Assembly (NCBI GenBank): GCA_003971905.1
Contig: RSEE01000027.1
Location: 372,001 to 436,000 of the forward strand
Reading direction: 5' to 3'
Source of the DNA: Moniliella sp. 'wahieum'
Lineage: Eukaryota
DNA: 64,000 nt
Shown here: positions 2,061 to 64,000 of the stretch, piece by piece
Numbering within the stretch: the first letter of the stretch is position 1
How the letters are laid out: every line of letters starts with the position of its first letter
Notes under the pieces: model-generated
Told to the model about the DNA's origin: nothing
The model's database searches: none
What the model saw: only the letters and a program-made list of their open reading frames with translations
Program-made: the position numbers and the translations under genes

Positions 2061-3487
2061 ATGCCTGTTCCCCACCCCTCTTCCTCTGCCCCCCCGCCGA
2101 CGGACGATCCAAAACAGCGCCTCTGGCTCTTTCACACTACCTCCCACCTTCTTGAAATTGCCCGCGACAACGATCCTCTTGTGTTCTGCCTTATCCCCAA
2201 GAATCGACTGTCGGTCCGACCTGGCCGAGTGGGCGTCCCAGCTCCAGGGGTCCATCGCTTGCGCCGGGGATGGGATTCTCCCGCCTCCGCATATTTGGCC
2301 TTGACCAAGGTCTTCCCTAATTACCACTGGCAGACACACCGTCTGTCGTGAAAGGGCTGACGTCGCTCGTGCCCAATCGCCGAAAAGAAAAGCGCTTCAT
2401 CTCCTTTCTGTTAAGGTGGTCGGACGCGTTGCGAGCGGAGTACAAAGCTGCTGAAGCCGAGTTCGACCACCTGCGCACCGAACACAGCAAGCTCGTTTCC
2501 AGTTTGGCCCAGCACCTACTCTTCTCGCCGAGGCCCAGACTGCCTACGACAAAAGGGAATGGTTCGACGGCCTCTCTTCCGATGTGGATGCCACAGACAA
2601 CGACGAGTACACAACACCATTCTTCGTGACCTCATGGAAAAGGTCTGCCACCAGTGGCCCGGCCCATTGGGTCTCCAACGCAGCACAGGCGACAGCGAGC
2701 TGCATTGGCCCGTCCAGGAACGATTATACATTAAGCGGTTAGAGAGAGGAGGTTTATATAACCCTTCAACAAAGTATTCAATCTCTGATTTTGCGAGCTG
2801 TTTGCCCAGGTGGCCAAACACAAGCGGAGTATGCCTACGAATTCCGCTACTGTGTCTGCGACTGGCACCTTCTTGAGTATGTCCCACTCCTTCCCTCCTT
2901 CGTCTTGGCCTTCTCTTTCGTTGGACCGTCAGATAGCTGTATCCTAACCCGGCTCCGTTCTTGTCGGTTGTCGCTTGATTGGATTTTGTTCCCAGGGAAT
3001 GGGCTGTGTTCGCCAAAGAGACGGGAATGAAGTTGGAAAAAACGTACAGGGAGGTGACAGCCCTTAGCACCGCCTTGTACCGCGACATCGGACCGCCCTT
3101 GCCCTCGCTTTGCCAGCACGGCAGCACGGTGGAAGAAGAACGAGAAGCAGAGCAGAGCGACCAAGAAGGCGAGACGGAAGCCGGGGGACCATCTGCTGCT
3201 GAACGAGTGGGCCCGAATGTTTCGCTCGAGTTGTAGAGTCCCAGCTGGCTTCCCTGAGTCGGTTGGCACGAGACTCCTCAAGGCGGCTGCGCGCGTACCA
3301 TGCTTGGGTCGACCAGAAGGAGCTACTGGACGGTATCCGCGTTGGACTGCTGCAAGAGTTGCAGACAGAGGCGATACCGGCGGAGGAGGAGGAGGAGGAG
3401 GAGGAGGAGGAGGAGGAGGAGGAGGAGGAGGAGGAGGAGGAGAAGGAGGAGGAGAAGGAGGAGGAGAAGGAGGAGAAGGAGGAGTAG
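2061..3487 (+). CDS. Orphan hypothetical protein with poly-Glu C-terminus
   Basis: Chain of overlapping + ORFs (2061, 2348, 2559, 2979, 3263). Canonical intron 2877-2995 (GTATGT..CCTAAC..CAG). TATA-like CATATATAG near 1965. Ends in 34 E/K codons and TAG at 3485-3487. Confidence 0.55.
3383..3484 (+). repeat. (GAG)n trinucleotide repeat with AAG interruptions (poly-Glu)
   Basis: 20 consecutive GAG, then a GAG/AAG mix up to the stop codon. Confidence 0.95.
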
Positions 3488-10300: not shown

Positions 10301-11125
10301 GCTCCACGGACCCCGCCGCACTGCCATCTTGGCCACGATGGAAATTGCGTTCCGCTCCCTCTTGAGTGCGCTCGCTCCCATTGCGCCTCACCTTGCCGAG
10401 GAAGCGTTCGAGTTCCGTCGTCGTGAGACGGAGGGCTACCTTGGTCTGCCGCCCATCCCGACAGATGCCGCTGAGGGGGACACGCGCATCGAAGGCAGCC
10501 TGTTTGATCTGGGATGGCAACCCGTCCCGCCCGTCTGGAGCAAGGCGCGTGCCGAACAGGGCGAACGCCTGCTCTCGCTCCGGACGGACCTGTTGAGCGT
10601 CATCGAGACGGCCCGCGCCAAGGGGTTGCTTGGCACAGCGCTCGAGGCTGATGTGGCGTTTGCCGTGCCGGCCGAGGGGGCTGACGTGGAACTAACCAAG
10701 GCGTTGGAAGAGAATCGTACGTGCCCCCCCCCCCCCCCCCACCCCTTGTGTTGAGCTTGTAGGCTGACCTTCTTCCCCTCCCCTCTCCCCACAGAAGCCG
10801 ACCTGGCTCGGTTTATGAATGTGTCCCGTGTCTTCCTACCCCACATTTCCTCTACGCCCGTCTCCCCAACGGGAGGGAGTACGGGCACGACGGTGGAGAC
10901 TCCTCTCTTGGCTGAACCGTCGTGGACCGAGGTGGGGGAGCACCTGGGCATTCAAATCCGTCTCGCTACGCCTGCTCTGAGCAAGTGTCCGCGTTGCTGG
11001 AGCTTCACACGAGCGAGGAAACTGCCGACTTGTGTCCACGGTGCGGTGAGGTGGTGGCGCATCACGGCACTAAAGTCAGGCCTATACAATCAATCCTACA
11101 CTGCTGTTACTGTCGTTCCCTTTAG
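7302..11125 (+). CDS. ISM1: Mitochondrial isoleucyl-tRNA synthetase
   Basis: Motifs [100 protein letters not shown] and KMSKS, plus C-terminal CPRC..CPRC. Arg/Ser-rich presequence. Intron 10717-10794. Stop at 11073 or 11125. Confidence 0.95.
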
Positions 11126-13807: not shown

Positions 13808-14054
13808 GGCCGCCCTGGGGCGATGGTGGTGGTGGTGGTGTTAGTGAGTTGATCACGTTGATCTTCTCGTTCTCCTCAAAGTTGCAAATAAAATGGTAGT
13901 GTTTATAAACGCGACTAGTACGCCGGTGGAACTGCAGTAGTACCGGGTATCACTACATCACTACGGTGCTAGTGGATTTTTCTCGTTTAGTTTCGCCAAC
14001 CAGTGTCCGCTGTACACATGACAGTCGATAATGTGCATTGCCATTTCCACATTT

Positions 14055-15785: not shown

Positions 15786-16486
15786 GGTGGGTGGGACGGA
15801 AGCAGGATGAGTCTCCTCAGGCCGCGCTAACACTCGAGTCGTTCCCCCTCTTCTTTGGTGAAAGGGAGCGTTGGCTGCCAAAAAAATCGATCGGTGCAAG
15901 CAGGCAGCGGGCCATAGACTGGGCAAGGTAGGGTTGCTATTGGCAGCCTCCAAAATTTGTGAGGTCCACATCACGCATCGCACATCACAGGTGACGCGTG
16001 ATACACGTGACGCGTGATGCCTCTTCTTTCTGTCAACTCAATGTGACCGGTGACCGGCGACCGGTGACCGGCGACCATTAATGAGGAGAGTAATGTCGAG
16101 AGAGGGTTGCAGCTGAAGCTCTGAAGTTCGTGAAGCCGAAGGAGGTAGTGGCGACCGCGGTGGCGTTGTCGTGAGCACCAAGATCGCCAGCCAACCACAT
16201 GGACGGGTGTTGGAAGCAGGCGGGACTTTTGGACACGTAATGCGCTGCGGTGCCACAGGGGCTGGCAGCAGTAGAACGCACAGACCACCCGCCCACTGGC
16301 GCGGTGCCTCCCGACAGCCCCCACCCATAAGATCTAAGAAGCGTCTGGACGGGTCCGCTGATCGATCGGTCGGCGCTGAGCCGTGCTGATATCCAGCCGG
16401 CCTCATCTACGCTTGCAATGACACCGGGTTGGAATCGCGCCGGCCTCCGCTAACCCCTGTCACCATCCCCCGTCCCCTCCACGCCC

Positions 16487-17549: not shown

Positions 17550-17976
17550 ATGAAGTGTTGGTAGCAGTGGGGTCTACGGCTCTCCTACCACCAGGGGTCC
17601 GTTTGTGCATTAGCGCTTAGCTCTCCAAGAACTCCCTTTATGGAACGTCACACGAACCTCGTAAAAGAGGGTAGGCTGGCCTACGGGCTGGCCCCCACAA
17701 TCTTAGTTCTGCCCTGTCTGTTCTACATTTAGTCCGAGCGTGGGGTTATGGCCAGTATAGCGGGGTCCAAAACCCGCCACACGCTCTGCTTCAAGCTTCA
17801 ACACGTCTGTTTCTCTTTTTTGTGGGTAATTCCCCCCACCTGTTGCCCCAGACATCTGCGGGGGTGTTGTCAACATCATCATCAACCACAACCCAATGAA
17901 ATAAAGGCCTTTTCTTCGGGACACCATGGTGATCCATATTTCTATCTCTTTTTGTAGAGGTAGGGAAGTATCTCTG

Positions 17977-18035
17977 TGCCTTGCTTTGCTTTGCCTTTCC
18001 TTGCTTTTCTATGCCTTGCCATGCCATGCCTTGCC
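17977..18035 (+). repeat. Degenerate pentanucleotide microsatellite (TGCCT/TGCTT/TGCCA)n
   Basis: tgccttgctttgctttgcctttccttgc...tgccttgccatgccatgccttgcc. Confidence 0.8.
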
Positions 18036-19515
18036 TGAGTTCGGTTGGGGCAGAAGCCGTGAGGGGTTCCACTTGCATAATAGCAGCTACATGTAGTGGA
18101 ACCACAGCTTTCGCTAGCAATAAATGTGGTTAAGACCCGCCTCAGGCACATCGAGATAAGCTACGAGTCGATGAGGCCCTTTGAGAGCACATATGTGTAC
18201 TCATGCTGACATGCGTTGTGCTGGTCACATGTCACAGCCCTACAACACATCTTGGGGTCGACGCAAAGCCCAGTGTGTTGATCTGTATATAGAGACAACG
18301 GATGGGTACTGTGGCGGCGTGCCCCGACGAAGCGCTGCTACTGTAGTGGGGGAGGGACTGCCAGGGTGGGGGACAGCAGGGGGAAACGCATCGAAGGTAG
18401 TGCGACATGGCCAGAAATCTGAAGCTTCAAGCTTAGCGCTTATTGGCGCTTTGAAGAGGCGGCCTGTCTGAGATGGAACTCTATTGAGCAGGACAAAGAG
18501 AGGGGGAGGCAGTAGCGGGACAACTCATGCCGTCACTCCGCCGGCTGAGCTCAGCCTGCGGGAGGATATGTCCTGTAGTCGTGGTCAGCAGAATTGTGGT
18601 TGCGGTTATAACCGACCTATTTCCTCGTCTTCACCCTTGGCAGTCACTCTTCCTTGTCGCTCTCTCCACCGGCCGAAGAGGGCCGACGCCACAAATGTTG
18701 GGGGTCACGTCAACACTTCTCAGATCTCATCAGCATCAACCTTCAAGCTGCTCAGCGCGCTCAGCCAGCTTCAAGCTTCACAAGGCTCCACAGCCGCCGG
18801 GAGGTGAATGTGTGTTCTGACGACGTTCAGCATTTTCCCCACCTTCCTCCGACAGACCCACAAGTCGAGGGGTTCAGGGGCTAGTGTGGGACCAAACACT
18901 GGCGTAATGCATTATCCATCATGCTCCCCCATCAGGCCTCAAGCGTCTGTGATGCCGCCGGGATGAGGGAGCAGCAGGCAGCACAACTGCAGGACGGTGC
19001 CTGAAATACAAATGGCTACTAGCAGATGCTTCAACTGCTACTGTGGGCGTATATTACCTGCTGAGCTGAGCGCTGGTCTGGCCTCCCTCAGGCCTGAGCC
19101 TCAGGTCTCACAGCGCCAGAGGCCATATCCTGCGCCGCCACAGGGACTTCAAGCTCACAGGCTGTCCGGGTCGCTCCCGCTTGTGGTCAATGCCACATTG
19201 TCAGCGCTGTCCTCAACTTCTTTACTACGCCTTAGTTGTCCCAACCTGCTTCTACTGCACTCAGTACTCATCACTAATCCCGCCGGGTGTCTGTGCCTGC
19301 TGTGCCTCGTGTGGAGCTTGCCGCGCCCCCCACTCTGTTTCCCCTTCAGTGAACCTCTGAACAGCCGTTCCTGGACCTTCGTTAGTTTGTATATCAGTAC
19401 CGGTCTTCTATAGTATCAGCTGTTAACGTGTGAACCCACACCCGCAGGTTCCTTTATCACCACCACCACAGCCGCTGTTACGGTAGCATCCTACTTTTCT
19501 CAGGGCTATACCAGC

Positions 19516-20633: not shown

Positions 20634-22817
20634 CCACAGCGTTCTCACTCGCCCTCCTTCCGGGCTCGTTCTCTCTCGCTTAATTGTACGATCGCGGCTC
20701 TCTCTTCACCTCTACTTGGCCTCCTCCCCCCCGCGCGCCTCCCCCTTCTCGCCCTTCCTTCCCAAGTTATATATATATAATCTTGCCTCCATCATTGCTT
20801 GCCATTGCGCTGTGGAACGACATAATACCAGTTCGGATTCATTTGCTGTAATGGCGGTAGAGGACCGCTCCACAGGTCAGTTCATGGTTAATGTCTGTGC
20901 ATGAGTTCATACACAACACCTCCCTATCTTATGTAATATTGACGTTCCACCCTTGTCCCGGCCCCTTTTGCGTTGCGAGATACACATCGTCCTGTGGTCC
21001 CTTCGCGACGATAAGTGCATGGATTTTATTTCCCCTGTGGACGACCCAGACTGCCACCAGATGGACTAGCACATACCCCTCTTTCGATTACTTTCCTCAA
21101 CCTTTCATAGTGTGCGTCCTCGTCACCCACCTTTTCGCCCCATGGGAGAGACCACCCCATTCCGTCTGGGTTAAGTACCTACGTTACGACGGCAGACACC
21201 AACCAACCCCCATGCGGCGTGGAGCCAAGGCAATCAACTGTTCCGCGCGATGGTTAATATAGTTGTGGTACAGTATGTTCCGGTGTTGCGGCCTCCGGGT
21301 CGAACGGCCCCGGCAGGTTCCGGTCCGCTGGGCCCTAGTTTCATTTTGCGAGAGGATGCTGCGAGGTGCTCTGAGGCTGCTCTTGGCGTTTGCCTTTCCT
21401 TGTCTCTGTCGTCTCCCTTACGGCGCGTTGATCGTTGATTGGCATACTATGATGATGCCACAGAAGAGGGAGCACGATGTGTGCGTGCGCCAAAGGAGAC
21501 CTATAACCTGCATCGGGTTCTTCGGGTCCGCACTACTGCAATACTTAATACTCAGCGTCAGCTCAGCTGCCTTTTGTTCTCGTAACGCGTAGCGCGTAAC
21601 GCGTAAACGCACGTGCGGGCCTGGGATTGGTCCAGTGGCGAAGGTGGAACGTTTGCAACCTTGTCTGGTAAGGAGATGGGAGGCGGCAAGTGCACCATCG
21701 ATCATCGATCACCGATTATGGGTCGACCACGGGTCGATCATGCATCATGCATCACAGTCGGGTGTCCGTGTCATGCCATTTCTAGCTCATTGCCGTCCTC
21801 AGCCGCGGAGGGGGGCAAGTCGAACAGACTGAGCAGGCCGAACCCGCTGCGGGGGACGCGGGCAGCGCCAGTTTTGCGGGGGCTGGGACGGGAGCAGTGT
21901 GGCGAAGAATGAGCTGAGCCGCTGAGCCGCGGTATCAGAAGCTAGGTATCCGCGGCTGAGTCAAGCCTGTGGGGGCTGCTGAGAGGTGTAGCAGGTGTCG
22001 CAGGTCTGGCCCAGGCGGCGGAGACCGTAGGGAGAGATAGATAGTAGAGCGACCGGATCCGATCTAGATTCGATATGTTCTTGCTATTAGGGAGGAGTAA
22101 AAGGCCTAAGGTTGGCGCGACTGGATTTTTGACTCTTGCCAAGCGCAGGCTGGGCAGTTCGGAAGGGGGTACGCGGGTACGCAAACACGGGTGCGTCGCC
22201 TGCCTCCCAGCGATCCTCGGCCGTCTCGTGTGGCCCCCGGTGCTGTGTATCCTTTGATGGATGGCATGCGGCTGGATTGGGTTTGGCCAGGGCAGGCCAG
22301 TGCTGTTGGTTGTTGCGATCGACGGAGCGTTGGGAGCTGAGATCGAGGGAGTGTGGGCTGGCTGATCCATCGATGATGGTGATCGATGATCGATGATCTG
22401 ACGCCCTTTAAACACATTCTCAAAATCACCTGCCCACAACGTCATCAACGTCATTGCTGTAGGGCCCGTTCGCGCCGCTTTAACCGGCACAATATGGCCT
22501 GGGCCAGCTGGGCCACCCAAGCTCACACAGTTCTTCTGCCGCCACCGGACGGGGGCCCGGCATTCTGAGATCGGAGATTCGGAGCGCTGAAGCTCGGAAG
22601 GGAGAGAGGAGAGAGGGAGGATGCGTGGGGTTACTCTTCCGCTTGGTGATACTCTCAGCACTCAGCCAGTCTCTTTCTCCGCCGACTCTTTCCGTCTGGG
22701 GGTCTAGGTGCCTCAGGCGAGGCCTCAGCTCTGGCGCCAGTCGGCCTTGCGGCTTCTTGACCTACCACCACCCTCCCCATTATCCCCTCTAACATCTCAT
22801 CTCACCCTTCCCATCTA

Positions 22818-25699: not shown

Positions 25700-26486
25700 G
25701 ACGGGCAGAGGAGGTGGAGGAAGAGAAGCAGGCGGAAGCAGGCGGGATCGGCTTCTCGGTTGTTGTCTGGCCTGGCTGAGGCGCACCAGCAATAATGGAT
25801 CGAAGCGAGCCCGACGGCCGATCCCGTCCGTTGCATGCGTTCCATCATCACCATCACCTGTGTCCCCCCCGCCCAAGGAGCCAGCCGCGCAACCTACCCA
25901 TCCGTCTCAAGACACGCACATGCACAACTGGCCACTGCCCCCGCGCTGCCCCCACTCTGTGTGCACAGACCACCACCAGCACCGCCTCTCGAACTCTCCC
26001 GTGCCATGGCCATCAGTGCATCAGTGCGAAGAAGTGACGTCACAGTGCATGTCCCGCTCCCCCCAAAGCCAAAGCCGCCGGACAAAGCGGCTTCGCTGAG
26101 CGGGTCCGTGCTGAGGCTCAGCCGGGCTCAGCTGAGGCGCTGCCTGACACGTCCTGGCACTGCGCCCCGTGATGATCAATCGATCGCTGATCCCGCCTCT
26201 CGTCGGCGCTTGGTCGTACGTGGTTCGTCCTGCTCTTGGATCTTGGATGTTACCGGGTATCGGCGTAGCGCGTACCCGACCCCTCCCGTCAGCCCTCCCG
26301 TTCGGGCGCGCTTCGTAGCCGGTCCTCTCCGGCCACAGCAGGCGCATTTCGGATGGCACTGCTGCGTCTGTACCGGGGCCATCCAGGCCGCACGACTTGA
26401 CCCGAATTGCTCTGCATATGGGGTGATGCGTGATGCATGATGCGACCGGGGCCGATGGTGCGATGGTGCGGGCCGATGAGCCTCAC

Positions 26487-26523
26487 CGATCATCGATCAT
26501 CGATCATCGATCATCGATCATCG
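26487..26523. repeat. (CGATCAT)5 heptamer tandem repeat, member of the TCA-N4 lattice family
   Basis: Five perfect copies plus CG. Confidence 0.95.
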
Positions 26524-27306
26524 CTGAGCTCAGCCGGAGTGCACAGGCTGAGCGGCTGAGTTAACGGGTAACCCTGGCTAACCCAGAAGGCTCCTCAAGC
26601 TTCAAGCTTCAAGCTCTCAAGCCGAGCCGCTGCTCTGCCTCAGCCGCCTCAAGTCAGCGTCAACATTGTTCAACCGTTCAACTTGAGCTTGAGCCATCCG
26701 ATATCATGCATCATAGATCATCGACCATTCATCATGCATCTTCCGGTCCGCCACGCGCACGTTCACAAGCACCCCAGCCGTCGGCAACTTGATGCGCCCA
26801 ATACCATGAGCGTCGTCTCCCGTTCGCCCTTGTTCTTGCCAGCTATCCGGTGCATCTTGCCCTCTTTAACTGATCTCGCATCCACAGGTACACTACAAGC
26901 TCTAACACATCCACAGAGAAAACAAGGCAATAGATGATGGAATTGGGGAAAAGTCGAGGCATAAGAGGGACTGGGTCCAACGGTCATATAGAGGCTTTTC
27001 TCAGAAAAGATACAACAGGGCCACCTCCGACACAAAGGAAGGGATAGCGCTTGGAATGCTTGATTCGGACACATAAAACGAAACATAGAGCCGCGCGCGC
27101 TCGCATGTGCAAACCCCATAACTGGTATGGTGGCAGGACAAACCAAAGCGTAGAGGAGTCAGAGCGCACAGGCACATTTACTACCATGATAGAGTACGGT
27201 TAGCTTCCATCTTGCCTTCGAAGGTGCAGCGAGAGCCATACAAAGGGACGTATACATACCACAAGCATGGATGCTCATATCAGCAGGGTTCAAAAGAATC
27301 CCATCC

Positions 27307-27498: not shown

Positions 27499-27987
27499 GG
27501 TGTGGTTGGTGGGGCGAAGAGAGCAGAAGAGGCGGGAGGATGGGGTGGATGGCAAGTCGGACGGTGGGAGGCGAGGGTGGGCGACTTTATACTGCTTGGG
27601 ATGTGTGCGTGGCCCCATGCCACAGCCCGATAGCAGGAGCGATAAGGCACGTGGGCAGTGTTCCCCGGGTTCAGGCCACCCGGTCGGCCAACCGGGCAGG
27701 GTGGGCCCGGGCTGGTGAGGGCGAGCACTGGCGTGGTGCTGCTGCACGGAGGGTGGGCGCGATGCATGATGCGTGGATAGATGACGTCGATTCGCTTGGG
27801 GGCGCGGGGTTTGCCAGGGGGATGGCCAGCCATTGCCTGGCACAGTGCATGCGCCCTTCTTCCCCGGAATTCGACGTCACATTGACCCATGATGCATGAT
27901 GCATGACGCGCATGACGCAATGACGCGTGATCGAGATCATAACATGCCAGATTCACACATGGGCTAGTAGGCGGTAGGGAGGAGGCA

Positions 27988-28043
27988 TGATGCATGATGA
28001 ATGATGCATGACCGGTGACTGGTGACCTGTGACATGTGACCGG
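27988..28043. repeat. TGA-N4 7-bp periodic array (8 units, variable spacers)
   Basis: TGA at 27988, 27995, 28002, 28009, 28016, 28023, 28030 and 28037. Confidence 0.9.
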
Positions 28044-28253
28044 ATAAGCGCACCGCGGAAAAATAGAGCTTCGATGCTTGGCTTGTCCTGAGATCTGAGA
28101 CACCTACTGCCTTTCCCGCAGCTGCCCCCCGGCCTTCCCCGCACTTTGGCCGAACCTGGGGGCCTATCCCACACGCCCGGCTGCTCGGGAGTTGTCGTGC
28201 CGGATAAGTAAAAGAGCCACTGTGGCGAATCATTAACCAAGTCATCGATGCGA

Positions 28254-28324
28254 CCATCGGCCATCGACCATCGGCCATCGACCATCGGCCATTGCATCAC
28301 GCATCATCCATCATACATCATACA
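28254..28324. repeat. (CCATCGR)n followed by a TCA-N4 7-bp array
   Basis: CCA every 7 bp from 28254 to 28289; TCA at 28297, 28304, 28311 and 28318. Confidence 0.9.
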
Positions 28325-29970
28325 TGCAGTTTCAAGCTTGCAAAAGGGCAGGCATTGCTATGTCCGTCGGCACCATTCACACGTTCCCCCGCCCATTTCC
28401 ATTTCCGTTCCCGGTCCCGGTACCGCGACAAGCTCCGCTCTGTTGTGCAATAGCCACCGGCGCCTCAGCCTGACTCATCATGCACATTCCCCAGCGTGAG
28501 GCCTTCGGGCGCGATCGGATATCCGGCCTCTTCCTAGCAGCATCTGTTGCTGGAACGTCGCCCAGGCGGTGGCCACATCCATATTCGCTGCTGCGGGTGG
28601 GGATCTTTGTGCTGGTTTCGATCTGACCTCCACCACCCAAATCCAGTCCTAGTCAGACCTTTCGAACTACCGATAAGGACAAAAGACTGCGCAATATTAA
28701 TAGCGGGTACGGCTTATTTTGGTACTGTGTGCACGTACGCATATAGCAGGCCCTTCAAGCTTCAAGCTTCAAAGCTATCTTCAAGCTTAATGAGCTTAAT
28801 GCATCCCCCCCCCTCTATCAGCATAGGCAGGTATAGATAGACACGAGATTGTGCGTTAGGCGTTACGCGCTGCGCGTTATCGCCGCCGCAATCATCTACA
28901 AATCGCCGCAGCTCCACGATATATGGAGACGCTTTTTGTACGTACCCACATCCCCCCGCGTTGCTTTTAGGTATCACAAAAACGGTTGGGCTTCAAATCT
29001 TTGGGACAGTGGACAGTTTGGAAGGGCGACGCTACCGCTGTAGCAAACCTTTGGGATCTAGGGACGACGTTGAGCTACTGCGGGTGGCTCGTGTGTATCA
29101 CGCCAAGGTCCCATCAGTGCATCAGTCCCTCGGTCGTTTTCTCGCTTCTGGTTTTCTTATTGGCCCGCTGCCAGTCGTGACGACTGGCTTTTCTTGATGT
29201 TCCTCTGTAGCCGTTGTTGGTTTGATTGGACCAGAACCACCACCACCACTGGTGCGATTGCATCACCCTCGAGGACCATCCGAACTCCAGGTCTCATCAG
29301 CTGCATCAACGACGGTGTATATCCTCACGTGCATAATCGTTCAGGGAATTTTATTGGGCTAATAAGATTGCCGTTGTCATGCGTGCCACTACTCCCCTAG
29401 AGGGCATAGTAGGAATGTATTCACTGGCCTGTGTAGTTGGTATTCCACGGTACAATGTGATTAAAAGTGGCCACAGAACATTACTCCCGTTGGTTGTGCA
29501 ACGTCAAAACACAAGGAGCTGGCTCACCTTGGGAGCGTCCCGTTGCAATTTCACGGTTCAGGTGGCCTGCCTGTTTTGTGGCAACGTCAAACACGCCTTG
29601 TGCATCAACTCTGGCTTTAGTACGCACGAGAATGGCATTATCCATGGAGTACAGCCTCAGGTCTCAAGGCCCACTATACTACGGGCCTCTGTTCTCCAGA
29701 GTTGGTAGCAAGCCACTTGCAGAAACGGTTCACCGATGAGCCTCACGGCACTTCATTGGCTACGCTACACGAGGTACTAGATATTCCCCACCCTTTCTTC
29801 AATGGGGCCACAAGGCCAAGCAACAATGGGACGCTTGAAGCACACGAGAGACTTTTGCTGAAGGTCGTCGCGAACCTCATTTTTTCCCTTTACCTTGGCG
29901 ACGGAACTTTCAACAGACAGACCCCCGAGCCTCGGTGTTTATCCATGCCAACCTGCCCCCTGACGACTCG

Positions 29971-40123: not shown

Positions 40124-40873
40124 GATGGTGTGGGGAGGGGGAGGGGCTGGGCACAGGCACAGGGAACAGGCGGGAGGCGTCGGGCGAAAGGCTAAGCCAG
40201 CCCCATCTAACTCTGGAAAGGCTGGCAGCCAAAAAAAAAAGCGGAAGGCGGGCGGAAGCACAAATGAAACATGCAGGGGTGCCCTCCGGCTGACGTATGC
40301 GGACAGGGTCCGCCTATCCAAAGGCAGAGGGAGCGGGGCTGAGTGCTGAGTACTGAGTGGGTTACTAGTTACTAGCTTTCCTGGGCTACTTGAAGCTTGA
40401 TCCAAGCCGAGGGGCTGGACAGAAGGGGAGAGGGGGGCTACGTGGACTGGGGCAGCGCAGTGCCATGTGGGGGGCCCGAAAGAGGAGCGGATGGAAGGGA
40501 GACGACCAGCCCGGCTTGCCGGGGGGGGGCGGATGAGTTGGCAGGACGGATGCATTGAGGATGCCATGCCAGGCTGGGTGGGGTAGGTGGGGCCGAGTCG
40601 GTGGGGCGGGGTTGAACGTTGATCGGCTGGGCGTGAATGATGATCGATGATCGCGTGCAGGCGCGCGTGAATGACCGATGAAGTCATCGATGACGGGGCC
40701 GCGGGGCACGTGACGACACTGCCCCCGTGCGGATTCGATGCGCCCCAGGCTGCCAGGCCAGGCGGGGCGGACGACGATTCATTCGGGCAGCACCCACAGC
40801 AGGCAGCCCAGCATTCGGCCAAGGCACACGCTCTCTCTCCTCCCTCCCACCCCCCCCCACCCCCACCCCCGCC

Positions 40874-47958: not shown

Positions 47959-48043
47959 GCCTCGCTATTTCAATCGGTAGAATTTGAGACTCTTACTGCA
48001 GAGGTCTATCTCACGGTTGTGGGTTCGAGTCCCACGTGGGGCG
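47959..48043 (+). tRNA. tRNA-Lys(CUU) with 12-nt intron (47996-48007)
   Basis: Acceptor GCCTCGC/GTGGGGC, anticodon stem TGAGA/TCTCA, anticodon CTT, T-arm GTGGG-TTCGAGT-CCCAC, downstream T4 tract. Confidence 0.93.
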
Positions 48044-48266: not shown

Positions 48267-48390
48267 GGAGCAAGCGAGAGCAAATGAGAGCAAAAACGAG
48301 AGCAAACGAGAGCAAAAACGAGAGCAAACGAGAGCAAGCGAGAGAGATCAAGCGAGACCAAGCGAGACCAAGCGAGACCAAGCGAGAGAG
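48267..48390. repeat. Purine-rich degenerate tandem repeat (CGAGAGCAAA)n/(AGCGAGACCA)n
   Basis: Roughly 10-bp units visible directly, downstream of the tRNA. Confidence 0.85.
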
Positions 48391-52927: not shown

Positions 52928-55353
52928 CGGCGATCCTACTGTTGTATTGTACCTGCTCTAGCAGCTCGGGCTGGAACGCGAGGGCAAGACGGGGAGGAGA
53001 CGAGCCAGGGTAAAAGGGCGGCTGATAAGGTGTACAGGTGGGAGAGGAGAGGACAGGGGAAGGGGAGAGGTGGGTGGGGGGGAAGAAACGTCAGGGCGAG
53101 CCCCAAAGTGCTCCTGAAAAGCGCTTGGTGGGCTCGCACGCGCGGGCGGGCATGGCGAGGAAGGCAGGAAGCAGCGCGTCGGCCAAACCCAAGCCCCACT
53201 CGCCATACCCATCTCATTCTCAGATCTCATCGATCATCTCTCCTTAGCTAGGCGCGTTCGGGGCAGGCGCCGTGGCATGCGAAACTTATTGTCTGCAGAC
53301 ACTAGCCTTGCTCGTTCTAGTGGCAATGCTCTGCCCCCCCACGCGGTCTCGGACCCCAGTTCACGTGCGCAACTCATGTCGGAGCGTACGGACCCTTTCT
53401 CCAACATCGTGGGGGAGGCTATAGCGGGGGGAAACGCCATAGATGGTGATCATCTCGTTGACTGGGGTTCACCAACGAACTAGTGCATTTCTTCCTCTAC
53501 TTGTCACCCGCAACGCCCACATTCAAGTAGGCATGCAAGCTGTCCCTGCGGGGTAGCTCTACCAGCCGATCCGGCCCCCCCACACCTGCGGACCATTATT
53601 GGCTTCACTGCCCAACCTAGTACGACTTCAACTATGGAAATATTTTGCGGTGCCAACACGGCTATGCTGAATATAGAGGTACTCAGGATTCGGCGGCCCA
53701 ACATATGGACCGTGTTTAGGTGTACGATGAGAGATTAGAGGGAGAGAGGGAGGCAAAAGGGAGCACCGGATGAATCATACTGATCCCTTAGCCCCGATAA
53801 TCTTGTTATGTATAGCGGCACATTGGGCCGTGGCCGAATTGATGCAGCTGTCAACCAACCGTGGCGGTGCCCACTTCACGTAGCTGGACGGAAGCAGGGT
53901 CCCATATTGGCTTGCGACGAAAACGTGATGGAGCTAGAGGCAGGGATTCGCGGCGGAATCCCATGCCGGGAAAACGTTGGCAACTTGCGCTGAATCCCCA
54001 ACGGAGTCTCAGCGCCGAGCTGTGTCCGCCCCCGGTCAGCTGCACCAGTTGGGGCAATCCAATGACGCCGCCGCAAAGCGAACATCGTTGTAGGCTGAGG
54101 CGCTGTGCCGTGTATTGCGTGGACGGATTCGCCGTGGCGGCAAATCGGATGTCGGTCGTTTTGAGGACGTGGAGATAGACGGGGTAAAGACTAGCAAGTC
54201 CTAGTTTGGTCTCACCTGGTTGTCCGTTGTAGGACATACGGTTGCTTCGGGAATGTAACTTTGCTTAGAGTTGATCGCACGGAGCATGCCGAGAGAAAAG
54301 GGGCTAGCGTAGGTACCGCCGCCATATACGCATCCTTGTTTGAGGGGGACTCCCAACACGGTCGTGATGGCAGAGAAAAGGAACTAGGACGTGGCGAGGA
54401 AAGTGTAATAGGGCAACGAGAGGAGGGAATGTGCGCTCACGCCGACATTGCTGTAGCAGGTCTCTCTTGCAACTGACCGATACGTCGTCCTAACGCATCT
54501 GACGATGGGATCAGGTTGTACTCCCACACCAAACTGGCTATGACCAAGAACTGTTGCAGTCCCCTGACAGCGTTCGCATCCGCCCCGCCACGAGCCATTG
54601 AACTTAGACCAAGCAGCAATTTCCGGTCAGTGGACGAGGGTGAGGAGCTGTGTGATGAGAAGAGGTGCGAGGCCACACTTGCAGGCGATACCGGGGGGAG
54701 GATTTGAGAAACCTCCAGCGCCTGTAGCCTCAGCTGAGCCTTGTAACGTCCAACATGGATGTGAGATGCCACTTCGCCCGACCCACAGTACGCCTTTGTA
54801 CTCATCGACTCAATCGCATGATCCGGTCTGCCCGGCCGGTTTAATGACAGTACACATCTGGGGTTGGACCATGACATGGGGCGTGAACAACCTGATTAAT
54901 GATTCAGGTCTGAGGCCAGGGCAAGCAGGCAAAGAAATCACTGGGACTAGGGTTGGCGCAATCAATTTTCTGGATGTTTGGCACGGCGCTACTGTTGCGA
55001 TCATATGGCAGGTGCTAGGGTTCTGGCTTGCGCCCTTTTTCCTGCTGGGCATGCCGCCCGGCGCAGGGAGCAGGAAGGCAGGCAGGCTTCTTGGCGGCCT
55101 CCCACCACGGTCATAAGGCCTTATCAGTGAGTATTTGTCCTTGTCGCAGGGCAAGTGCTGCTCGGCCCCGCCATCTCGTTCCCTCTGCTTGTGCCATGTT
55201 CCGGCAGCGACGGGGACAAAGGGCAAAGTGGACTGGAGATGGTCAGGCGCGGGACGGCAACTCAGTCACCAAGCTCGGGACACTCGGGGACGAAGACAAA
55301 TGGGCCCCCGCATACTAACTCTCCTCTTTTTGGTCTTGGCAGAGAACATTAGG

Positions 55354-56468: not shown

Positions 56469-56988
56469 ACCACTCGATGGACCACAGGGCACGGTTCGGT
56501 TCCTCGTTGGGGCGCAACGTGGACTGGAGGTAGCACCGGTCCGGGGGGGAGGACCGATCGCGGTTTCCGTCCGAAACCCGTCGGCGTTGGGTATCACGTC
56601 TTATTTCCTTGCCCTGCACACTGTAGAGGGGAGGTACGCATCGTAGCTGTGTCCCTCCCGTTCCCTCTTGCGTCTCTCCTCTCCTTCTTATGCTTCAAAC
56701 GTCATGTTTGCTAGGGAAAAATGCATAACCTTCGTTGTGCGTCGTCCATCCTCGGTACGTTGGGTTGTCAGTGGAATAGAGCGATGTGGATGATGAGGAA
56801 GGGATGCACAACAATGGGGCAGGTCGCAACACCAATCAGTACTTCTGCTTGAGGGAGTTCCGTTTCTGAGAGTGGGATTTGACGTGTAACGGTGCCATCC
56901 TTGATGACGGCGAAGCTATCCGTCATTGACGGTCTCGTCGTGATGATGCTGGTACGGGACTGCTGAGCCCGCGTTCTATGATAACGTT

Positions 56989-57072
56989 GCCTCGCTATTT
57001 CAATCGGTAGAATTTGAGACTCTTAAAGAGAGGTTCATCTCACGGTTGTGGGTTCGAGTCCCACGTGGGGCG
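56989..57072 (+). tRNA. tRNA-Lys(CUU) with 11-nt intron (57026-57036)
   Basis: Exons identical to the copy at 47959, intron different, followed by a TTTTT terminator. Confidence 0.93.
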
Positions 57073-58091
57073 TCTTTTTGGCTGGCCAGGTAGCTTGAGG
57101 AGCGGTCCATGGGTTGTCGTTGGTGGGTTAGGTGGTTAGAGTGGCCAAGGGTAATCTGGCTGTCATGAGATAGATGGTGATGGGGTCATTAGTTGAGCAG
57201 CGGACACTAGCCAACTTGGTCAGATTTCAGATCTGAAAGCATAGGGAGGCACGTTGTGGGCCTCAAAAGTCAGCACTCACTCCGCCAAGCTCCGTGACAG
57301 GTACGGTGAAGAGTTCATTGTTCTCGCCCACTGTTGATCTGTCCATGAGCGCGTTGCGCCGACGTTGTGCCACTTGCCAAGCGTCTTTCAATGCTCGGAA
57401 CTTGGAAACCAGCGCATCACGTCGACAGCTATATAAGACGAGACGTGACGACAGGTAAGAAGGACGACTTGGGGTTGGTTGGGCCCAAGTGAGGGTGGAA
57501 GGGCATTTGTTAACTTGCCTGCGACGATGTGGTGACGGTGCAAACTTGGCAAAAGTGGGGCCAATGGGGCGGATGGTTTGAAGGTGCGTTGCGGAGAGAC
57601 AGGCGTGGCTTGCTTCTTAGCAAGCGCGGCACAAGGGGCCCCACGGGCGCTGTGCGACATGGGATGCATGATGCGTGTCGCCCGACAGCAGTGTGCCCTG
57701 CTGGCTGTCGGTGCAAAGGCCGTGCGTGCGGGGCAGGGCGGAGCGGCAGAGGCGGCAGGCGGCCGGGCGGGTGCAATGCGAGGGGGCGTGGCGCCTGCTG
57801 CATGCACCCATCGTGGCTGACACAGGCACCGGCGGCGGGTGTGTGCGCTCTGCTGCGGCGGCGGCGGCACGTGGCAGGCGGCGTCTGCAATGTTGCAATG
57901 TTGCAAGCTCCGTTCGGTGTGCCCTGCGTGTGCGCCGATGGGCAGCTGGGCGCAGCGGCAGCCTTTGCCTCAGCGCTCAGGCCACCCAGCCCATTCGCAC
58001 CCACGCTCCCACAAGTACTTAGGCTGGTGCGCTCTGGCTGTCGTCCGCCTCTTTCCCGCCCTCCCAGCCCACCCCGCCCTCTGCGCCCGCC

Positions 58092-62027: not shown

Positions 62028-64000
62028 GATGCACGACGGGAGGGGGGCGTCCGGATGGGGACGAGCGAGAGGGACGGGCGGCTGGCTACAGGTTATACTT
62101 CGGCGTGCTGCCGGTAACCGGTACGAACCGTACCTAATTGTAATAGCGGGGAAGCGTGAGTTGTACTATAATACTAGCGCCTAGCTGCTGGCTGAGGCTC
62201 TAGGCCTGTCTGCAGACACCCCAGCCCACACACCTACCCGGTACGCGGCAACCAATACACTGCCGGCACCCGCGTGGGGGCGCCGCTCCCCCGCGGGCCT
62301 CAGCCTGACGCACTCAGTGCCCAGTACAGTACTCAGCCCAGCCCCTCCGCCGCCATCGGTCTAACAGCGCCAGACTGCACTCAGCCTACCACAGCCTATA
62401 CCCAACTTACCCCAGAATCGACACAATCCCCGGCCCGCAATAGTGTGCACATGCGGGGTAGCCGGTAACCGGTAACTCTTGCACGACGTGTTGGCCCGCC
62501 CGCTCAGGGCCTCACGCGTCACGCCTGAGCCGCCGGCCGCACTCCACGCCTGCCTGTCTCCACCCGCTCTCCCACCCGCGACCGGGTTTGAAGCTCCGCT
62601 TGACTATACGCTCACCATTCAGATTCATTTCATAGTCACAGTCGTACGCGTTCCCTCCGTTGTACGGTCCGTGTTGCTACGTTGATATGCGCTCTGATCG
62701 ACGTTCGAGAGATACAGTGGTGAGCGTCGCAGGCTCGGGCGATCGAGGCTCCTACCATATGCGTTCACGAACGTCAGACGAGTGTTTCAGAGCAGTTTGC
62801 TCGGACCCGGACCCCCACACCAGAGCTGTGCCACCTGGAGGTGCATTGTCCCATGTCATACGCTGTCCTAACAAGGAGACCGACTAAACTCCGTCGACGG
62901 GGGGCGGTGGTGGAGTTGTTGAATATCTTTTGGAACCACTGGCGTACTGCGTATTCAGTACTGACACATTATTGGCGTTTTTAACGCACGTTGGCGAGGA
63001 TAGCAAAATGAAGATCAAATGGGTTAATGACCGCCCCCCTCCCCCAAACTCCTGCATCACACCACAGCGGGCTCACATGTCACATGTCACAGGCACACCG
63101 CCCCACCCCCACCTTGCCATCTCTCTGGCAGCCAGGCGCTATACAGCAGGGCCCGAATTGCGCCTACCAACGCAGGAGTAGTGCGTGCTGGCCTATACTA
63201 CGCACGCGTGTGCTTATGCATCGAGACAAACAAATCGTGTCCATCGCCCACAGGAGGCGTGACGCGTGACGTGACGCGTGATGCGGGAGAGCGAGCTGGT
63301 CCGTGTGAGCCACATCGCCCCATCACCAATCAGATCACGAACACGACCGATTGCGTTTCTCCTGTCCCAATAAGCGAGTAGCGGATTTATGCCAGCAGGG
63401 CCAACAGACTCGATATACCGCGGCTGCGACGCTCAGCTGGGAACTGCACGGCTCAAATCCCCCCCCTCCTGCCTACACCCTCCAGAAGCATTCCATGTCA
63501 ACTGTCAGCGCCCTCAGCACTGGCAGACTACTCAACCACGCAGCTCACTTTCCAAGCCCCCACATCGCGTAACGCCACTAAATACCACACCAAGGAGATC
63601 ATTCGCATGCCAGTGTGGAGAGAGGGCAACTCAGCTCACGGTGGACTCTCAGTGCCGGCATCAATTAAAGTCTCCATTGATCTTTTTTGCCACCGTCGGC
63701 CGATGTTACACACCACGAGGGGAAGCTGGGGTACCGTCGGACTCAATCCACCCGTTCGGCTTCCTCGCTGCATTATACGGCGCCCCCCACGTCGATACCA
63801 ACGCAAGAAAGCGGAGAGGTATCCTGGACCTTACCATATAGTATCTTGCCCCACAGCTTCCTCAGTTGAACTGCTGAGCGCAGTCGAGTCGATGCTCCCG
63901 CGTCACATGCATCACAGGGCTTGATTCCCGGCCTGAGGACTTTTAACAGAGAGTGATCCAGGCCAGCGACATGATGAACGACAAGTTTTCGCCGCGATGG

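Follow-up and report, generated by a model that had tools for sequence, protein, structure and literature searches.

What process would keep one triplet at a fixed step, while the four bases between its copies change and stay for the most part self-complementary, is the question raised by the TGA array at 27986-28043. The window, meaning the whole stretch of DNA that was analysed (64 kb), has a G+C content of about 60%. The preliminary description of the array was accurate to the letter: TGA occurs in eight copies at exact 7-bp steps (starts 27988, 27995, 28002, 28009, 28016, 28023, 28030 and 28037), and its spacers are TGCA, TGAA, TGCA, CCGG, CTGG, CCTG, CATG and CCGG.

27986..28043, unstranded: type array of eight in-phase TGA, TGCA block on the left and CCGG block on the right

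When the whole window is considered, TGA recurs at lag 7 at 4.1 times the expectation and TCA at 4.9 times, in line with the excess that had been predicted; at the other lags between 3 and 21 the recurrence is 0.65-3.1 times the expectation. Period 7 is found in 29 of the 140 rows reported by Tandem Repeats Finder. For 5-mers containing TNA the recurrence is 18-22 per 1000 at distance 7 and 6-9 per 1000 at distance 14, compared with only 1.4-5.7 per 1000 at distances 5, 6 and 8-13. The predicted enrichment of palindromic spacers also holds: outside predicted coding DNA the spacer is self-complementary in 68 of 149 TNA-N4-TNA pairs (9.3 expected), in predicted coding DNA in none of eight, and 15 of the 16 palindromic tetramers are in use. 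The strict 12-mer TNAcd-d'c'-TNAcd, in which d'c' mirrors cd, is matched 63 times when both strands are counted, at 39 loci, whereas 20 dinucleotide shuffles give 0.15; the number of loci following this grammar in the 64-kb window is thus 39, with about 0.2 expected. Without any condition on the core, 100 12-mers composed of a 5-mer, the mirror of its last two bases and the same 5-mer were found (7.2 expected), and in 63 of these the 5-mer has T as its first and A as its third base (background 3.3%). The cores of the 63 are TGA (29), TCA (27), TTA (4) and TAA (3). The core T[G/C]A given at first is too narrow, and TNA replaces it: the loci divide into 32 with G or C and 7 with A or T as the central base, vs 1026:420 for the sites (Fisher p = 0.15).

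As an external control, 122 metagenome stretches (337,082 bases) were picked for at least six in-phase TGA at 7 bp. The spacer is palindromic in 127 of their 2804 TNA-N4-TNA pairs (4.5%), compared with 46% in the window, and loci obeying the rule occur at 0.044 per kb, compared with 0.61 per kb. Given the low share of palindromes in the controls, the rule is no general property of 7-bp repeats. One control stretch, L049, the sole G+C-rich one (63% G+C) with at least three palindromic spacers, carries TCA-GGCC repeats following the rule at 3021-3047, with flanks that are free of further events.

Structure of the insertions

When the loci are read in register, it can be read from their letters that one event adds seven bases at a site ab-TNA-cd, the product being either ab-TNA-cd-d'c'-TNA-cd or ab-TNA-b'a'-ab-TNA-cd. 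The 7-mer ab-TNA-cd is doubled, and the four joint bases cd|ab give way to cd+d'c' or b'a'+ab, so either flank can serve as the source of the spacer, which mirrors the upstream or the downstream dinucleotide. The array units in register consist of a 6-bp palindrome A-NNNN-T and one odd base. Among the 27 solitary events the 7-bp period is continued upstream in none, downstream in 7 and on neither side in 20. The seven loci with downstream continuation are arrays with decayed copies. The 20 solitary events without a periodic flank are therefore neither 7-bp tandem copies nor products of slippage, and in them the two mirror bases are newly made, with the flank as template.

The type array and its neighbours can be described in these terms. 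In the left block the TGCA spacers are the mirror of the upstream CA, in the right block CCGG is the mirror of the downstream CC; TGAA, CTGG and CCTG are one-base variants of rule spacers, and CATG is the rule product at a TGA preceded by ..TG, after the change of CCGG to CCTG. The ancestral site would have been ..GGAGG-CA-TGA-CC-GGATAAGC, and the history of the array would comprise at least seven events plus three point changes. An event at the boundary TGA would add TGCA (CA mirror) or CCGG (CC mirror), and an event inside a block would add the spacer of that block once more; boundary and within-block events together would give a TGCA block followed by a CCGG block, matching the observed array. 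The initial argument, that slippage alone ought to copy entire units, is sound within its limits, and the variety of spacers in this array would come from the rule and the three point changes.

27888..27906, unstranded: CA-TGA-TGCA-TGA-TGCA-TGA, two stacked +7 events at one TGA, as read in register
27902..27927, unstranded: +9 and +8 variants CATGACG-cg-CATGACG, whole 7-mer doubled with two mirrored bases (Tandem Repeats Finder and matrix); readable also as a 9-bp tandem repeat
28089..28100, plus strand: solitary event TGAGA-tc-TGAGA
28309..28325, unstranded: plain 7-bp duplication CA-TCA-TA, 2.4 copies, joint unmirrored, class k = 0
28753..28771, unstranded: CT-TCA-AG array with AAGCTT joints, two events
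28786..28801, minus strand: +9 variant CATTAAG-ct-CATTAAG with a TTA core

The extent of the doubled block was read from the rarer classes. TNA-centred 7-mers followed by a mirror of kL bases and by a second copy beginning kR bases in (W7 + mirror(kL) + W7[kR:]) were counted in a matrix against shuffles. On the diagonal the counts are 34 for (0,0), 38 for (1,1), 63 for (2,2), 63 for (3,3) and 2 for (4,4), with shuffles giving no more than 0.7; since T and A are mirror bases of one another, k = 2 cannot be told from k = 3 in the product. The off-diagonal cell (2,0) has five matches in four loci and (1,0) four loci, each with 0.0 in shuffles. When TNA pairs are assigned to exclusive classes, k = 2/3 holds 63 matches (0.15 in shuffles), the plain 7-bp copy with central TNA eight matches in four loci (0.3 in shuffles), k = 1 two matches and k = 4 two matches. 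The class of other junctions holds 12 matches (2.65 in shuffles), several of them one base off the mirror. Four off-diagonal events have exact 7-mer boundaries:

26668..26682, minus strand: clean +8 variant GTTGAAC-g-GTTGAAC, exact 7-mer ab-TGA-cd doubled with one mirrored base
29112..29126, minus strand: clean +8 variant ACTGATG-c-ACTGATG
18750..18765, unstranded: clean +9 variant GCTCAGC-gc-GCTCAGC
13848..13863, minus strand: +9 variant GATCAAC-gt-GATCAAC

The period-9 pattern TNAcd-d'c'-xx-TNAcd has eight matches in seven loci, and xx equals the upstream 'ab' in five matches (four loci), where chance would give 1/16. From the +8 and +9 classes and from the identity of xx with 'ab' it follows that the duplicated block is 7 bp long with TNA at its centre. 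This target duplication is retained, the whole 7-mer being repeated in the +8/+9 and plain +7 classes, and the main class has a net gain of 7.

Further loci of the window are given below. At 53218-53238 the spacer GATC is the mirror image of the TC before it and the spacer TCGA that of the downstream TC, in the order that the rule predicts, and the precursor would have been TC-TCA-TC.

26488..26522, unstranded: longest perfect array, GA-TCA-TC in five copies, ATCGAT joints
26595..26613, unstranded: TCA-AGCT array
53218..53238, unstranded: two events flanking one TCA, TC-TCA-GATC-TCA-TCGA-TCA-TC
40338..40373, unstranded: GC-TGA-GT plain duplication, then TGAGT-ac-TGAGT, then TTACT-ag-TTACT
40389..40400, minus strand: solitary CTTGA-ag-CTTGA
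40611..40652, unstranded: GTTGA-ac-GTTGA and a GA-TGA-TC array
16006..16076, unstranded: CGTGA-cg-CGTGA and a TGACCGG array with degenerate copies
17610..19270, unstranded: seven solitary events in one long spacer (starts 17610, 17789, 18225, 18431, 18718, 18769, 19259), with cores TTA, TCA and TGA
21595..22398, unstranded: four loci with joints ACGCGT, ATCGAT and ATGCAT
62464..63281, unstranded: four loci, namely GG-TAA-CC, TCACG-cg-TCACG, a TCACATG array and a CGTGACG array
about 28251..28292, unstranded: exception, CCATCGG/CCATCGA array, 14-bp repeat CGACCATCGGCCAT in three copies, GGCC joints

The last of these has the core ATC, which is not TNA, and cannot be derived from the rule. Loci with a 5-base repeat and two mirrored bases around non-TNA cores number about 14, vs about 7 expected, and with these the TNA preference may be incomplete. 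Rule-like events with near-TNA or unrelated cores (TTG, ACT, CTA) were seen at 26236-26247, 1428-1439 and 62174-62185.

Position of the loci and contents of the window

The absence of the pattern from coding sequence, claimed at the outset, is borne out. Predicted coding DNA holds none of the 39 loci; it covers 34% of the window on a crude self-trained codon model that misses known exons, e.g. of the NADH-dehydrogenase gene at about 30.9-31.3 kb. By comparison of coordinates none lies inside an ORF with a Pfam match, and none inside the merged gene spans. The loci are clumped, with seven in 17.6-19.3 kb and five within 586 bp at 40.3-40.8 kb between divergent genes; the locus at 40338-40373 belongs to the latter cluster. 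Several loci lie between divergent genes, a count that comes from a gene-orientation analysis too crude for a claim of promoter bias. There are 51 perfect events in the 64 kb, and 30 of the 39 loci hold a single event. The nine loci with several events compare with 0.86 expected if 51 events were spread evenly over about 1485 TNA sites, and this excess requires hot spots, renewed targeting of scars or some additional slippage.

Genes of the window include split housekeeping genes for a class I tRNA synthetase, an ORC subunit, an RNA methyltransferase, a PI4-kinase, eIF6, ribosomal proteins and GalT. One window protein has its best named relatives in Tilletiaria (42%) and Microbotryum (45%), and two further contigs match at 66% and 59%; with these as best named relatives, the source is a basidiomycete without a close named relative in the database. 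A search of metagenome contigs by way of the neighbouring methyltransferase gene gave 76 pattern matches and no relative. ARAGORN reported one tRNA gene (Phe, anticodon read as aaa, 87 nt, probably intron-bearing) at 56988-57074. The 44 nt at 48000-48043 are 95% identical to the 3' half of this gene and gave no tRNA call; just downstream, at 48268-48388, lies a degenerate 10/22-bp repeat of the GAGCAAGCGA type in about 11 copies. A (GGA)34 repeat occupies 3382-3484 in a predicted coding segment that is rich in glycine and glutamate. Long imperfect homopolymers are present in non-coding DNA (G28 at 1485-1512, C22 at 10724-10745, C29 at 40842-40870).

The window was also searched for an element that could be responsible. 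Pairs of terminal inverted repeats with a TNA-bearing 5-bp duplication numbered zero in the 64 kb, and those with a 3-bp duplication one, which is spurious; the search covered duplications of these two lengths. No transposase family was found by Pfam in the 199 ORFs of at least 130 aa and 25 further ORFs of the window, and no dispersed or inverted repeat of at least 40 nt is present in it except the tRNA-like pair. A literature search of article texts found no published account of a 7-bp footprint centred on TNA, or of a uniform genome-wide scar of this kind, and nothing on footprints of the transposon T1.

Proposed route and known systems

The events are very probably scars of hairpin-type break repair. 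Taken by analogy, the pattern would be a TNA-centred variant of the hairpin-type excision and repair footprint, a kind of footprint already known. The most likely source, held with some preference rather than with confidence, is the excision of a transposon with a 7-bp target duplication. From the observed insertion structure, TNA centre, flank templating, 7-bp block and restriction to non-coding DNA we infer hairpins, an opening offset, ligation of either strand and a staggered cut made by a mobile element. A cut-and-paste element would insert by a 7-bp staggered cut centred on TNA and produce the target duplication nnTNAnn, and its excision would leave two hairpin flanks, each sealed precisely at the boundary of the duplication. 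A nuclease of the Pso2/Artemis type would open the hairpins, each at 2 nt 3' of the tip. On the left, the top strand would then end in ...cd-d'c'; on the right, the top strand would start at T because its 'ab' had moved to the other strand, so that two 4-nt 3' overhangs would end up opposite each other. Ligation of the top strand would give TNA-cd-d'c'-TNA-cd, and ligation of the bottom strand ab-TNA-b'a'-ab-TNA. More generally, opening k nt 3' of the tip would add k mirrored bases on the left and let the right copy start k bases in; any symmetric opening would give a net gain of 7, and an asymmetric one +8 or +9 and two full copies of the 7-mer. Repeated events at one TNA would stack into 7-bp arrays whose spacers are fixed by the two original flanks. 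The symmetric model fits all classes, i.e. the constant +7, the two mirror classes and the rarer +8/+9 variants.

Several steps of this route have parallels in experiments. In the passages of the reports drawn on here, yeast Pso2 opens hairpins on the 3' side, by preference 2 nt from the apex, and, when Ac/Ds excision was assayed in yeast, was responsible for more than 95% of the revertants recovered (PMC3299998); in Candida, yeast and plants the footprints of Ac/Ds bear P-nucleotide palindromes, and experimental ones comprised 28 types among 128 clones (PMC5873905). The scars described here are far more uniform than those Ac/Ds footprints (PMC5873905), which counts against a transposon source, as does their density, 51 events in 64 kb being high for an element-free stretch.

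A comparison with particular families gives partial likenesses. Ac/Ds and other hAT footprints are alike in that the target duplication is kept at the empty site and the joint carries flank-derived inverted (P) bases, as far as these are described in the cited part of PMC5873905, and the opening of fungal Ac/Ds hairpins by Pso2-type nucleases resembles the proposed route (PMC3299998, PMC5873905). However, hAT palindromes are odd-length and centred on the complement of the element-adjacent base, whereas those in the window are even (cd|d'c'), and Ac/Ds footprints are heterogeneous, whereas one type dominates here (PMC5873905). An 8-bp hAT-type footprint (x1-7, x8', x2-8) predicts D6-g-D6-g', which is absent among the period-7 runs of length 6. 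Duplications made by hAT elements are usually 8 bp long, nTnnnnAn. This form was tried and rejected, since the block has 7 bp and carries its T and A as third and fifth bases.

In V(D)J recombination the hairpin is shut exactly at the boundary, and opening 2 nt 3' of the tip produces an overhang of 4 nt that is self-complementary, with P additions of 2 nt. The joints of V(D)J recombination are varied, while the scars of the window are uniform. The target duplication of RAG/Transib is 5 bp, compared with the 7-bp block found here, and we know of no TNA-centred target for this group. The boundary hairpin, the 2-nt P additions and the parallel in Pso2 (the cited part of PMC3299998) are the points in which RAG/Transib coding joints agree with the scars. 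Further geometries were rejected. A Transib/RAG duplication of 5 bp (TNAcd + 2) fits the main class, but is contradicted by the clean +8 variants and by the +9 variants with xx = 'ab' (4/7 loci). With P bases at both ends it predicts TNAcd-d'c'-N'A-TNAcd, which fits two of the eight period-9 matches, both of them also equal to 'ab'. A 3-bp TNA duplication with P bases predicts TN'N'A spacers, none of which was observed, and the copying in tandem, at 7 bp, of palindromic sites already present is ruled out by the solitary events.

P-type excision leaves element-derived overhangs and no flank hairpins. Galileo, of the P superfamily, makes a 7-bp duplication with the palindrome GTANTAC around a free central base, as in the window, yet its centre is A-N-T rather than T-N-A and it is an insect element (cited part of PMC4168063). 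Basidiomycete DNA transposons with 7-bp duplications are on record, namely hAT7 and Kyakuja (KDZ), which belong to the same phylum (cited part of PMC12730594). No element or transposase of the hAT7 or Kyakuja type was found in this window by the searches for 5-bp and 3-bp duplications and for Pfam families. T1 of Cryptococcus deneoformans is alike in being a basidiomycete cut-and-paste element that lands between genes and has no recognisable transposase; 41 of its 46 insertions are intergenic, 34 of these 41 within 200 bp of a start site, with none in spacers of convergent genes (PMC9942834). For its integration sites the authors report no motif in the part of that paper cited here, unlike the TNA of the present loci (PMC9942834).

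Other explanations and meaning

A host-encoded or domesticated hairpin-forming nuclease, RAG-like, might cut nnTNAnn with a 7-bp stagger in open chromatin, with no element at the site and with repair as in the main model. This is considered rather unlikely. A window in which the above searches found neither element, transposase nor repeat would suit it, as would the high density of scars, their very uniform outcome and the gathering of loci in few spacers; however, for the 7-mer to be duplicated the two staggered ends would have to be filled in or held apart, a point that the insertion of an element explains directly, and we know of no candidate gene. Improbable to a greater degree are ordinary 7-bp microsatellites, whose units of a 6-bp palindrome plus one base would fold, slip and expand, the TNA/palindrome rule being then a survivorship bias. 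Slippage may well extend an array once two copies exist, and the arrays, which reach five to six copies, and the excess of multi-event loci (9 vs 0.86) agree with this. It requires a prior repeat, however, and the 20 of 27 solitary events consist of a 5-base repeat and a 2-base mirror in aperiodic flanks; mirror bases that are absent from the inferred pre-insertion site, the T.A requirement (63/100 vs 3.3%) and the +8/+9 variants of the whole 7-mer are left unexplained by it, and the TGA arrays of period 7 in the 122 metagenome stretches are non-palindromic.

The first interpretation had offered half-site arrays for a factor multimerising on T[G/C]A at 7 bp, a chromatin, nucleosome or replication-origin code, and a foldback-copying mutational process. 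Only the last agrees with the loci, in which the spacer equals two flanking bases plus their mirror already in solitary events (20/27 with aperiodic flanks). The arrays look like mutational scars, with no signal or binding code. That the loci lie exclusively between genes, several of them between divergent genes, would suit half-sites or a nucleosome or origin code under selection, and we take the TGACG- and ACGCGT-like words among the products to resemble known sites, which was counted on that side. Coding absence is, however, expected of any +7 frameshift. A factor that reads TSA half-sites needs no spacer templated by the neighbouring dinucleotide, so the binding reading is unsupported, and the flank-templated spacers, the use of 15 of 16 palindromic tetramers, the free central base and the phase-breaking +8/+9 variants speak equally against the chromatin or origin code. 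Most loci hold one pair (30/39 single events), and decayed copies are common, with 12 matches in the class of other junctions. Selection for a code of either kind is thus given very little credence. An artefact of assembly or sequencing is hardly to be entertained at all: the mirror bases are flank-templated, bound to TNA, confined to non-coding DNA and accompanied by decayed older copies, and no error mode of sequencing known to us inserts flank-templated mirror bases solely at TNA outside coding DNA.

To our knowledge no described family has even-length palindromes together with a TNA centre and a duplication of 7 bp. It is tentatively proposed that an undescribed cut-and-paste system, with a new or domesticated transposase, targets nnTNAnn at a 7-bp stagger and that a fixed geometry of hairpin opening writes a near-deterministic +7 scar. 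Such a system might have made thousands of hits on the promoters and spacers of this genome, and would hence be the main source of its 7-bp tandem repeats and a steady generator of 6-bp palindromes A-NNNN-T in its regulatory DNA. If this is true, the genome holds a natural, genome-wide record of one pathway of DNA-break repair with near single-outcome fidelity, from which the offset of hairpin opening and the ligation of mismatched 3' overhangs would be readable from sequence alone. Short tandem repeats and the palindromic hexamers of promoters would be born without a start by slippage. A very active element or enzyme would leave scars and hardly any copies, and standard repeat annotation would overlook it. 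It would also call for caution, as phase-locked intergenic 'motif lattices' can be wholly mutational.
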